Assembly: GCF_004010195.1 (NCBI RefSeq) | Contig: NC_057756.1 | Coordinates: 10,497,299 to 10,531,477 of the forward strand | Length of the DNA stretch: 34,179 bases | Source of the DNA: Chiloscyllium plagiosum | Lineage: Eukaryota | Reading direction: 5' to 3' | Part shown: positions 1,775 to 20,537 of the stretch, in pieces | How the letters are laid out: each line of letters starts with the position of its first letter | Position numbering within the stretch: the stretch's first letter is position 1 | Program-made: the position numbers and the translations under genes | The notes under the pieces: generated by a model | Databases searched by the model: none | What the model saw: only the letters and a program-made list of their open reading frames with translations | Told to the model about the DNA's origin: nothing

Positions 1775-2905
1775 CATTTGATGATGGCAGAGCAGTAGAC
1801 ATTGATTATTTGGATTTTCGTACAGCCTTTGACAAGGTTTCGCGTGTTAGTACAATTAGATCACATGGAATTCAGGGTGAGCTTGCGCGTTGGATACACA
1901 ATTGACTTAAAGGCAGGAGACGCAGAGTAATGGTGGAGGGTTGCTTTTCAGTCTGGAGGCCTGTGACCAACGGTGTTCCACGGGGATCAGTGCCGGATCC
2001 ATTTTTGTTTGTCGTTTATATCAGTGATTTGGATGAGAATATAGGAGGCATGCACATTACACCAAAATGGGTGGCGCAGGCGACAGTGAAGGTGGTTTTC
2101 TAAGATTATAACAGGATCTTCAGCAAATGGTTCAATGGCAGAGGAGTTCAAGCTGAATAAATGCGAGGTATTGCATTTTGCTGTAACAAAAAGGGTGGGC
2201 TTTATACAATTAATGGTAGGGCCTTGGGGGGGGGGGGGTTGTAGAACAGAGGGACCTAGGGGTGCAGGTGTTTAATTCTTTAGAGCTTATGTTACATGTA
2301 GACAGAGTGGTTAAAAGGGCATTTGGCATGCTTGCCTTCATTGCTCAGATCTTTGTAAGAGTTGGGACCTTACATTGAGCTTGCACAGGACATTGGGGAG
2401 ACCTGTTCTGGAATACTGTGTCCAGTTCCTGTTATAAGAAGGATATTATTAAGCTGGAGAGGGTTCAGGAGAGATGTCCCAGGATGTTGCCAGGTATGGA
2501 ATCTTTGAGTGATAAAGATAGGCTAGGATTTGTTTCACTGGAGCGTAGGAGGCGGAGAGAAATTTATTAAAATAATGAGGGGTATAGATAGAGATGATGG
2601 CTTTTGTCTTTTCCTTGGGGTGGGAGAATTTCAAAACTAAGCAGGGGCACATTTTTAAGGTGAGAGGAGAGAGATTTCAAACAAGACATGAGGAATTATT
2701 TTTACACACCAGGGTGGTTTATGTGTGGAATGCACTTCCTGAATAAGTGGGGGATGCAGATACAATTACAATGTTTAAAAGAAAGATTTGGAGGGATATG
2801 GACCAGGAGCAGGCTGGTGGGATTACTTTAGTTTGGGGTCATGTTCAGCATGGACTGGTTGGAGTGAAGGGTCGTCTTGTGCTGTAAGACTTTATGACTC
2901 CATGA
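1775..2905 (+). mobile_element. HER1/CR1 LINE 3' fragment (RT domain to 3' tail), degenerate
   Basis: DDGRAVDIDYLDFRTAFDKV...HGIQGELARWIHN, a GVPxGSV-like motif and a (ctatgact)-like tail at ~2890-2905. Confidence 0.9.
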
Positions 2906-3379
2906 CCGAGAGACACTAACTTCACATTTCACCACTGTTGTGAGATAGAGTGCTGTCTTGAGCCTTGTAGAGAGTAGACAGCCTTTTGTAGAGATAGGCT
3001 AGTTAACCTCATGGGGCAGTATGGGTGAATACATTGACAGAAGAGAATTAATTTTCTTTGAGCAAATCTTTTAAGTTGGTCATTTGTTGTGAGGGACACT
3101 TTATCAGTGTGAGATAGCCCCCCGATTTGAATTGAAGCCAGAAATTCAGGAGAAAATGTTTACAGCAGTTTGCCAGTCAGCTGTGTCAGTATCCTGGTAA
3201 AACAAATGCTTGAAGTCAATCTATTCCCTTTCAATTGGGAAATGGAAATGGCCAGTGATTGGAGGCTGGGGTGGGAAAGAGGGGAGCGAAGGGGTGGGGT
3301 GGTGCTAGGGAAGTGGGATATGAATTAGAAGCTCAAAAGGCTACACTTTCCCCACATCATCCCACTCACCTTCACCAGG

Positions 3380-8580: not shown

Positions 8581-8976
8581 CACTCTTCATTGTCTCACTT
8601 TATAAACATTCCTGTCTCCTCCTTTCTCCCTCATGTCTTTCCCTTGATAAATGTTTCAATGCTTTTGATTATATCACTGCCCATACACCAACAGCATATG
8701 GACTGCAACAGATCCTTCTCAAACGGAACTAGGGACAGGCAGCAAATGAAATGAATGAATAAAAAAATCTTCAAATATTCCCCACTTGCAGTAAAAACAA
8801 GATTTTCCCAAATTCCGTATTGGATTTATTCATGACCATCCCACATGATTGGCTCCATTACTTGGCCCCCAAAGCCTTTCACAACTCAAGGAGAACTCCG
8901 ATTCCACGCACTGCAGAAGTAGGGCCATCAAATCCACACTGACCCTCCAAACAGCATCCAACTGAAAGACCCCTGC

Positions 8977-9431
8977 CCTACCCCTGCACATCTTGAGACA
9001 CAATTTGGAGATGCCGGTGTTGGACTAGAATGTGTAAATATAAAAATCGCACAATACCAGGTTATAGTCCAACAGGTTTATCTGGACACCCAGAGGTAGC
9101 CCATGCAGTCTCAGGGAGAACATGCAAACTCCGCACAGACAGTCAGCTAAGGCTGGAATCAAAGACAGATCAAGACACAATGGACAATTTCGCATGGCCA
9201 ATCCACCCTGCCTGCTCATCTTTAGAGTTAGGGAGGAAACCTTCGTAGCCATGAGGAAGAATGTGCAAACACCGCACGGTCAGTCACCCAAGGGTGAAAT
9301 CAAACCCAGGTCCCTGGCGCTGTGAGGTAGCTGTGCTAACCACTGAGTCATGGCATCACCCTGCTATCAAGTCATAGAGTCATAGAGATGTACAGAATGG
9401 AAACAGACCCTTCGGTCCAACCCGTCCATGC
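8977..9431 (+). repeat. Direct repeat copy A (composite of minus-strand HE1 SINE pieces, a Penelope end and a HER1 tail); runs into the gap
   Basis: Matches 10089-10543 at offset 1112 with 8 substitutions counted by eye. Confidence 0.95.
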
Positions 9432-9515
9432 NNNNNNNNNNNNNNNNNNNNNNNNNNNNNNNNNNNNNNNNNNNNNNNNNNNNNNNNNNNNNNNNNNNNN
9501 NNNNNNNNNNNNNNN
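9432..9515. other. Assembly gap (84 N)
   Basis: Run of N. Confidence 1.
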
Positions 9516-10089
9516 ACCGTTCGAAGGTTAACCACTCATCATATACTGTGTTGAGCAGTGAATTTTATTAATTACACCATCATACTACCCACCACCCTTA
9601 CTTAAGTGACTAAAAATCATCAACTTTATTCCTAAGAGCCTTAAAATCAAAAAAAAAAATTAAAAATTAAGAGACAATAAAAAAATTAAAACCTAAAACA
9701 CACTTATTAAAATTACACAAAATTCACTAAAACTCTTAACCTAGAACATCATATCTAAAACACTATAATATCAATTTTAAAAGACGATTAAATTATGTCC
9801 AACGGAGAACCTAAGAGTCCATGAATATTCTTAGCAGCTCTAACGTCAGGGAGATAACGAGGTTCGTCATATCTTGGGCAAAAGATTTGAATTTCATAAT
9901 CCCAAGTTTTTTCATGAGCTCATCATTTCTTCCGAGCCATTTACCTCTACATCCTATCACGAACCCATACAAAGTTATTTCTCCCTGACCGGTAAAATCC
10001 ATTATTTCTGCTTTGAGATGTTTGTATTTGGTTACTTTCTCCTCCCATGCTGCTTCTAGGGAGTTGACTTGAAAGTCTGCCCTAATAGC
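9516..10089 (-). mobile_element. 5'-truncated R2-clade non-LTR retrotransposon: restriction-like endonuclease C-terminus (10089-9811) plus T-rich 3'UTR
   Basis: Uninterrupted 92-aa frame AIRADFQVNSLEAAWEEKVTKYKHLKAEIMDFTGQGEITLYGFVIGCRGKWLGRNDELMKKLGIMKFKSFAQDMTNLVISLTLELLRIFMDS*. EKxxKYxHL and GFxxGxRGKW match the R2 endonuclease C-terminus. Confidence 0.8.
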
Positions 10090-10543
10090 CTACCCCTGCA
10101 CATCTTAAGGCACAATTTGGAGATGCCGGTGTTGGACTAGAAAGTGCAAATATAAAAATCGCACAATACCAGGTTATAGTCCAACAGGTTTATCTGGACA
10201 CCTAGAGGTAGCCCATGCAGTCTCAGGGAGAACATGCAAACTCCGCACAGATAGTCAGCCAAGGCTGGAATCAAAGACAGGTCAAGACACAATGGACAAT
10301 TTCGCATGGCCAATCCACCCTGCCTGCTCATCTTTAGAGTTAGGGAGGAAACCTTCGTAGCCATGAGGAAGAATGTGCAAACACCGCACGGTCAGTCACC
10401 CAAGGGTGAAATCAAACCCAGGTCCCTGGCGCTGTGAGGTAGCTGTGCTAACCACTGAGTCATGGCATCACCCTGCTATCAAGTCATAGAGTCATAGAGA
10501 TGTACAGAATGGAAACAGACCCTTCGGTCCAACCCGTCCATGC
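10089..10543 (+). repeat. Direct repeat copy B
   Basis: Matches 8977-9431 and begins exactly at the R2 5' truncation point. Confidence 0.95.
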
Positions 10544-10750
10544 CAACCAGATATCCCAATCCAACCTAGTCCCACCTGCCAGCACCCGAGCCCCTTGGCC
10601 CATCTGGTCAAGATTGTGCTGTAATCTGAGGTAACCCTCTTCGCTGTCCACTGGGTAACCCAAGATGGAGGACAGGAAAAATTTCTGGCTGTAACAGCTG
10701 CTCCTTTTTTGTGGTTTTGACGTAAGTCATCCCTTAGACTTACCTTTCTA

Positions 10751-10809
10751 GAAAGAGAGAGAGAGAGACAGTCAGAGGGGGAGAAAGAGAGAGAGAGAGG
10801 GAGAGGAGA
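10751..10809. repeat. Imperfect (GA)n microsatellite
   Basis: gaaagagagagagagagaca...gagagagagagagg. Confidence 0.85.
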
Positions 10810-11064
10810 CTGAGCCAGTTCCTGATGGTTTGTAATCTTTTTGCCCTGAAAACAATCTTTCCTGTATGGTGTCATCTTAACACTCTGTGTGCTCACAGCA
10901 CCTTCCTGTATTTGTAGGTTTGCACATCATGACTTACCCACTCGCCCTCCTTACACTGAGCACTGGATCCCTGCTGCTGACTCCGAGCATCAGTGGCAAA
11001 AGCCAAGTCAACAATGCAATTCTAATAACGAGCTTTATCATTTATCAGAAGTTCAAAAACAAAA

Positions 11065-19590: not shown

Positions 19591-19714
19591 AGGTAACCCG
19601 GACTTTCATGCATTTCATAAATAATACCTCTTGGAAAAATTGTCATATTTAACAAAGAGAAAACAATTATCCCATTGTTCTTCATTGTTGCAAATCCAGG
19701 CTCTATAGACTAAA

Positions 19715-20402
19715 GATGTGCAGGTTAGGATGGATTGGCCATGGGAAATTGTCCCATAGTGTCCAGGGATGTGCAGGTTAGGGTGGATTCATCATGCTAA
19801 ATTGTCCCATAGTGTCCAGGGATGAGCAGGTTAGGGTGCATTGGCCATGCTAAGTTGTCCCATAGTGTCCAGGGATGTGCAGGTTAACGTGGATTGGCCA
19901 TAGGAAATTGTCTCATAGAGTCCAGGAATGTGCAGGTTAGGGTGGATTGGCCATGGAAAATTGTCCCATAGTGTCCAGGGATTTGCAGGTTAGGGTGGAT
20001 TGGCCTTGCTAAATTGTCCCATAGTGCTCAGGGAATTGCAGGTTAGGGTGGATTCGCCATGGGAAATTGTCCCATAGTGCCCAGGGATGTGCAGGTTAGG
20101 GTGGATTGGCCGTGGGAAATTGTCCCATAGTGCCCAGGGATGTGCAGGTTAGCGTGGATTGGCCATGGGAAATTGTCCCATAGTGTCCAGAGATGTGCAG
20201 GTTAGGGTGGATTGGCCATGCTAAATTGTCCCATAGTGTCCAGGGATGTGTAGGTTAGGGTGAATTGACCATGGGAAATTGTCCCATATTGTCCAGGGAT
20301 GTACAGGTTAGGGTGAATTGACCATGCTAAGTTGTCCCATAGTGTCCAGGGATGTGTAGGTTAGGGTGAATTGCCAGTGGGAAATTGTCCATATTGTTCA
20401 GG
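19715..20402 (+). repeat. Minisatellite of ~13 copies of a 53-bp unit derived from the HE1 SINE interior
   Basis: Consensus GATGTGCAGGTTAGGGTGGATTGGCCATGGGAAATTGTCCCATAGTGTCCAGG; continues into an HE1 3' end. Confidence 0.95.
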
Positions 20403-20537
20403 GATGTGTAGGTGCATTAGTCAGGGGTAAATATAGGGTAATCGGGTAGGAGAATGGGTCTGGGTGGGTTACTGTTCAGAGGGTCAGTGTGGACTTGTTG
20501 GGCCGAAGGGCCAGTTTCCACACTGTCGGGATTCTAT
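20403..20537 (+). mobile_element. HE1 SINE 3' end
   Basis: GAATGGGTCTGGGTGGGTTACTGTTCAGAGGGTCAGTGTGGACTTGTTGGGCCGAAGGGCC. Confidence 0.85.

Follow-up and report, generated by a model that had tools for sequence, protein, structure and literature searches.

The window analysed here is a stretch of 34,179 nucleotides of the Chiloscyllium plagiosum genome (NCBI RefSeq assembly GCF_004010195.1, contig NC_057756.1, positions 10,497,299 to 10,531,477 of the forward strand). On its minus strand, positions 9516-10088 consist of R2 sequence, and base 10089 already belongs to the flank. R2 elements normally insert in ribosomal RNA genes. Here, the order is flank copy, scaffold gap, R2 piece and flank copy, and the features of this arrangement are given in Table 1; the recurrence of the same 455 bp on either side had not been recorded in the initial annotation. 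Elsewhere in the window lie a tandem array with a 53-bp unit (19613-20495) and, on the minus strand, a 241-amino-acid (aa) open frame with a CxxC motif (156-878), which is presumably a piece of a LINE ORF1 and overlaps a 165-bp tandem duplication (233-561).

Table 1. Features of the R2 locus in the window, with the CR1-type LINE site found at other loci
Feature	Position	Strand	Remarks
Predicted pre-insertion site in the empty allele, GG^TAG	8973..8984	-	Predicted
Left flank copy, read as the empty allele	8977..9431	+	8 differences from the right copy
Scaffold gap, 84 N	9432..9515	.	From the sequence; place of the unassembled R2 3' end and 3' junction
R2 3' UTR, first 295 nt, T-rich	9516..9810	-	Comparison with relatives
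R2 ORF end, last 91 codons and stop (end of the restriction-like endonuclease)	9811..10088	-	5'-truncated, no start
5' junction of the R2 piece, blunt	10088..10089	-	Read from the sequence
Right flank copy, read as the filled haplotype	10089..10543	+	Window self-comparison; mostly very high-copy repeat pieces
CR1-type LINE site	L135 and L137 at 1501	-	
3' junctions at the CR1 site	L073, L099, L103, L104, L106, L111, L114, L129		

Read from stop to stop, the minus-strand frame at 9811-10089 has 92 aa and holds EKVTKYKHL and YGFVIGCRGKW; its first Met is residue 30, which leaves 63 aa, and on re-reading these coordinates agree with those first reported. A PDB search with the 92-aa peptide gave only three matches at E≤1 (9nl3, 9dou, and 9nl2, with E values from 5e-11 to 7e-8), and since all three are R2 proteins, the match is not a chance one. 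By sequence, the solved R2Tg structures (9dou/9nl3) are the closest structural relatives of the peptide. A Pfam scan of the peptide returned no family. Over 91 aa the window is 87% identical to P0001 (chiPu_0022439), a protein of Chiloscyllium punctatum, and the proposed identity as the C-terminus of an R2 endonuclease is thus borne out. Thymine makes up 134 of the 295 nt (45%) at 9516-9810, and the GC content of the bin 9501-10000 is 0.31 against about 0.45 in the surroundings, in keeping with the description of a T-rich 3' UTR unlike the neighbouring DNA. An Rfam scan of the whole window found no match at the gathering score, and the window is therefore without rRNA, as had been noted by eye; the 5' flank is repeat DNA, and the copy does not lie within 28S.

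The fragment begins just past the endonuclease residues PD and D, as read in the translation of its relative L031; we take these to be catalytic residues. Being 5'-truncated beyond both, the fragment is dead and cannot give a working protein. By comparison with relatives, about 176 nt of the R2 3' end are absent from the assembly and lie in or beyond the gap. In one RNA run (X21, about 2% of which was read), depth was below 5 on the T-rich UTR, with none on the coding part, a result that speaks neither for nor against expression.

A protein search of the genome (3.56 Gb) yielded 150 scored hits from 351 candidates. The best hit, L002/L031 (one locus, 87% protein identity), lies at a distance of 203 kb, between gaps where the same scaffold ends, and runs into canonical 28S, with 1643 nt of downstream 28S. 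Another member, L042, is a full-length element of 4.65 kb that occupies the canonical site and is flanked by 28S at either end, so that the family is present at its usual target. P0001 was found by a search with a close relative, L037 (81% identity). The beginning of P0001 resembles what is visible of R2-1_CPu in Table S2 of PMC13188248, and in the accessible portion of that table R2-1_CPu is listed with 28S on both sides. In a tree of C-terminal rows (108 rows and 97 columns, R2-like hits only, no labelled outgroup), the window groups with P0001 and L031 with support of 97/93. The relatives L037, L042, and P0001 possess the reverse transcriptase domain PF00078 and, by eye, three zinc fingers and a Myb motif, all outside the fragment, and L037 scores E 1e-186 to R2Tg versus 1e-70 to the Bombyx mori-type protein. 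The zinc fingers, Myb motif, and better R2Tg scores place the family in lineage A, and the fragment is a 3' piece of a known shark R2 of this lineage. An HDV-like ribozyme is absent from the fragment; when the 5' 181 nt of a relative were tested for one, a plain fold, which is blind to pseudoknots, gave z -0.04.

The two flank copies were compared with sequencing runs from outside the assembly. Four of 24 runs were compared with 9516-11000, namely the Logan contigs of X1, X2, and X9 and the raw reads of the RNA run X21; these probably come from other animals, and Logan contigs drop rare variants. Depth in X2 is 53.7 at position 10281, within the duplicated stretch, against 67.9 in the unique flank, and in X1 it is 9.8-11.8 over the duplicated stretch against 8.6-15. 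At 10281, X2 shows the letters of both the left copy and the right copy (34.9 and about 19), and its record 14 equals the right copy with 1 difference and departs exactly at 10089 into letters that are not R2. Given this single-copy depth, the presence of both letters and a right copy that lacks R2, the two 455-bp copies are best interpreted as an empty and a filled allele. Since the stretch is single copy and allelic in other animals, the assembly probably stacked the empty and the filled haplotype. We also considered whether flanking duplications are a routine habit of this assembly; this reading is without support, as only this gap has one (1/13 gaps in the fetched loci, 1/3 in the window).

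About 115,500 records from X1, X2, X9, and X21 were compared, and not one of the 24 pieces listed from them bridges 10088/10089; the R2 contigs of other runs match up to 10083-10088 and then continue into unlike sequence, as in longer elements, and the largest share of the stretch's words in any run is 53%. A lack of reads across this junction had been put forward as a sign of a chimera, and these pieces neither prove nor rule one out. At the junction itself, an 8-nt word at 10077-10084, 4 nt inside the R2 piece, equals the 8 nt across the empty site (8973-8980). In the empty allele, GG^TAG lies at a distance of 4 nt from the 5' junction; GGTAG has a frequency of 0.06% per position, and upstream of the predicted nick the empty site bears no likeness to 28S.

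The open frame was initially taken as evidence of a recent, possibly active family. The conclusion survives and the evidence does not: 38 of the 49 next-best genomic hits (63-87% identity) are likewise stop-free over the match, in a ranking that favours stop-free hits, so that the open frame says little on age and is weak evidence of youth. What does speak for recency is the presence in other samples of multi-copy relatives that are about 98% identical to the piece (6 differences in 275 for X2 record 12, 3 in 186 for X1 record 5). These extend past both ends of the window piece, and X1 depth over the R2 part is 25-74 against 13-15 in the unique flank. A second set of relatives in the other samples is about 91% identical, and of its 18 listed sites 13 are silent and 5 are changing. 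Seven sites of the window differ from 92-100% of the depth in the runs that cover them; four of these lie within the frame, where two alter a residue, one of them at a conserved Phe. The nearest other copy in the assembly is only 76% identical in DNA, which suggests that the young copies in rDNA are unassembled. On this basis, the off-target landing is most likely recent.

In order to set the fragment in context, 3' junctions were surveyed in 61 distinct copies of the window's family with a readable 3' end, a score-biased subset in which duplicates were merged and classes were assigned by hand; the window copy, L014, and L036, whose 3' ends are not readable, were left out. Six of the 61 have long 28S flanks, with 28S on both sides or reaching a gap, and nine have a 28S tail of 51-1228 nt followed by other DNA. 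In twelve, all of them on contigs shorter than 14 kb, the next sequence is another R2, beginning with its 5' end. In the remaining 34, R2 gives way directly to non-rDNA, mostly at TAG(CC); 28 of these have the natural 3' end and six a clipped one. Strays are therefore common, and there is no single new site. Most of them begin no more than 10 nt from the natural 3' end of R2, and poly(A) is absent. A TAG or a longer 28S prefix (3-10 letters) opens 18 of 27 non-rDNA flanks, where the TAG background is 1% per position; this count covers 27 of the 28 natural-end copies (L022 omitted), with 3' anchors set by eye and a slack of 1-3 nt. TAG(CC) is the sole sequence common to the 27 flanks, which is not the pattern of R8 or R9, where there is one new common target. 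A target-site duplication (TSD) was clear in just one of 28 comparisons (12 + 16, several of the 12 being without a true 5' flank), namely 33 bp at L037; the empty site of L037 is without the TAG-like letters, which means that TAG can come from the RNA alone.

Several arrangements met during the survey should be kept in mind by anyone annotating R2 in this genome. The sequence that follows the 12 R2 3' ends at first resembled a new shared target; in fact, the copies are stacked head to tail, and the sequence is the 5' UTR of the following R2. Such stacks, with mixed subfamilies, are found on small contigs at L045 (C94519), L034, L006-L008, L010, L011, L020, L021, and L028, and a stack on contig C85578 terminates in 28S. 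Among 12 putative full-length strays, eight (L075, L076, L078-L082, and L085) begin in non-28S DNA at the first bases of the element, a G run, two have long upstream 28S, and two are without the first 100-130 nt; the G-run starts may mark the site at which the 5' end of the RNA is cut. Many dispersed 28S matches start at the R2 site, and two 28S pieces without R2 (L050:1501 and L051:1501) start about 12 nt upstream of it. At L054, the R2 3' end is followed by upstream 28S and an intact target site, that is, a rearranged rDNA unit. The same 3' flank recurs at different places for L058/L116, L127/L128, and L017/L018/L030, so that either the insertions were duplicated or the assembly repeats them. 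Directly after a 3'-clipped copy of the window's family comes a further R2 family of lineage A (L004:949-2307), whose open frame is long; L125, with a 28S tail, may be yet another. At L036, the R2 fragment lies beside a 328-aa frame (minus strand, 2017-3000) that by eye is like a seven-transmembrane receptor.

A second R2 family appeared as hits of about 50% identity (75 candidates, 40 scored, all on chromosome-scale contigs). Of its 35 junctions, 19 open with TAG, and none runs into 28S beyond 14 nt. Eight of the 35 3' junctions fall at one position in the reverse transcriptase gene of a LINE, which from a peptide motif we take to be CR1-type, and this position is similar to the 28S target. 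The pattern of this site has 2226 matches in the genome, and even at 100 times that number, 0.1 of 35 junctions would be expected there. Under a score chosen post hoc, it shares the top rank for likeness to the 28S target in each of two LINE loci, out of about 5,960 positions per locus. The eight copies range from 73% to 100% identity and are scattered among the other copies. On these 3' junctions a template switch fits as well as an insertion, and the position is a possible second target. Three copies, from both families (L055, L096, and L134), continue into what is apparently one position of another LINE, presumably so given the peptide VAGQVDK in the flank. The 3' end of the second family reads, by eye, like the 3' UTR of the zebra shark element R2-1_STig, which the available part of PMC13188248 lists with 28S flanks. 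This likeness, along with the one copy that has 14 nt of 28S, weakens the idea that the second family is a fully non-specific R2.

We favour, and regard as moderately probable, a real, R2-made, heterozygous off-target insertion at this locus. The source would be an R2 that resides in rDNA and belongs to the youngest lineage-A subfamily, its RNA being transcribed together with 28S rRNA; that R2 is copied from rRNA co-transcripts is stated in the portion of PMC13188248 at hand. Reverse transcription would then be target-primed at a non-rDNA site, where a short 28S tail of the RNA (UAGCC) probably pairs with TAG beside the nick, and copying would halt after about 750 nt, leaving a dead 5'-truncated copy. 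In the sequenced animal, this young insertion would be present on one haplotype, and the assembler would have placed the empty allele to the left of the gap and the filled one to the right, creating a false 455-bp duplication. The GG^TAG of the empty allele predicts where the missing 3' junction should lie; as that junction is unassembled, the key hallmark is unreadable. The initial annotation had offered two readings, and of these the off-target insertion of a shark R2 is supported, as is the R2 identity. The other, a lineage with changed or relaxed specificity, divides: changed specificity is not supported, given that L031, P0001, and L042 are 28S-associated, and relaxed specificity is a fair description in so far as strays are common lineage-wide.

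An unlikely alternative is that a library or assembly error joined R2 from the animal's own rDNA to a contig start, with no insertion here at all. The piece adjoins a gap at the end of a contig, and R2 is multi-copy, so that such reads would be abundant. The 8-nt common word fits an artefactual switch too, the right-copy haplotype exists without R2 in X2, and it is the absence of a bridging contig among those listed from the four runs that keeps this alternative in play; that absence has less force given the loss of rare variants from Logan contigs and the probable origin of the runs in other animals. There is, moreover, no long overlap to mislead an assembler, GG^TAG lies 4 nt from the junction, and real strays are frequent in the genome. 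The seven window-specific sites fit a private insertion and a private rDNA variant alike. A true duplication, that is, an older fixed insertion with a TSD of at least 455 bp, would give exactly the order flank, R2, gap, and flank, and the 1.8% divergence of the copies is near the distance of the piece from its subfamily; single-copy depth in X1 and X2, versions that act as alleles, and a right copy without R2 make it very improbable.

The insertion may also be real and owe nothing to the R2 endonuclease, if cDNA was captured at a break or if an R2-28S RNA was copied by another LINE. Other LINEs are abundant in the genome, strays rarely show a TSD, most off-target sites are unlike 28S on their upstream side, and the 28S tails of 51-1228 nt indicate that long read-through RNAs were copied. 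We nevertheless consider this route improbable: strays start near the natural 3' end without poly(A), as if the R2 protein picks its own 3' UTR, one R2 family reuses a 28S-like site, and, according to the accessible text of PMC11371274, nuclease-dead R2 rarely inserts in cells. Little credence can be given to a lineage that has abandoned 28S, whether for another target or for none, in the manner of R2NS, R8, and R9. Most assembled copies are outside rDNA and eight full-length copies begin in non-28S DNA, but the nearest relatives in the tree are 28S-inserted and L042 is full-length at the canonical site, which argues that the lineage has not been retargeted. The strays retain 28S-derived 3' letters, and with the nearest stray so distant there has been no burst of young dispersed copies; the young, near-identical dispersed copies of R2NS, with none at 28S, are thus not what is seen here. 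A preponderance of strays is also expected where rDNA copies are purged or unassembled and strays persist (PMC13580325, section 7, as far as available).

Shark R2s and stray R2 copies are already known, as the available parts of PMC5035012, PMC13188248, and PMC2718515 make clear. The bamboo-shark elements R2-1_CPu and R2-1_CPl in the visible part of Table S2 of PMC13188248 are of the same lineage and have the same type of T-rich 3' UTR; the window piece differs as a truncated copy outside rDNA, and the accessible portion of that paper does not discuss dispersed copies. In five Drosophila species, incomplete R2 copies outside 28S are 1-2% divergent from the rDNA copies, and non-28S R1 copies carry up to 14 nt of downstream 28S (PMC2718515, part available). 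These are strays likewise; those of the shark number at least in the low hundreds, have 50-95% identity, and have 28S tails of up to about 1.2 kb. The avian R2 proteins TaGu and ZoAl gave about 1% and 0.1% off-target insertion in human cells, at sites with little likeness to the target save for primer-complementary bases just after the nick (PMC11371274, accessible text). The shark stray junctions match this signature, in the natural germline rather than with engineered templates in cell culture. R2NS-1_SMed and R2NS-1_CSi, with copies more than 98% identical to their consensus at unrelated sites (PMC5035012, accessible text), are likewise outside 28S, whereas the window's family is still at 28S and its strays are mostly old and mutually unlike.

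The window fragment is accordingly one stray of many and not the sign of a retargeted element. In itself it is ordinary, and the set of strays is of greater interest; in the literature searched, which excludes most subscription papers, we found no description of the strays in sharks as a set, of stacked R2 copies, or of a hot spot in a LINE. We suggest, tentatively, that shark lineage-A R2s are leaky and have left a long fossil record, and that the R2-1_STig-like family has a recurrent CR1 target, reached independently and over a long period. If this is true, the CR1 site would represent a natural stage on the way to a new target and would chart the tolerance of the R2 protein, and the window fragment would be among the newest, still polymorphic entries of the record. 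A 2026 review (PMC13580325, section 7, as far as available) regards a plain division of R2 proteins into specific and non-specific as too simple. Lineage-A R2 proteins are under development for gene insertion into rDNA, and hundreds of natural strays are a direct sample of off-target sites, of the reach of R2 RNA into 28S, and of R2 sequence change. That change over time can be read in the strays, a record that rDNA turnover normally erases.
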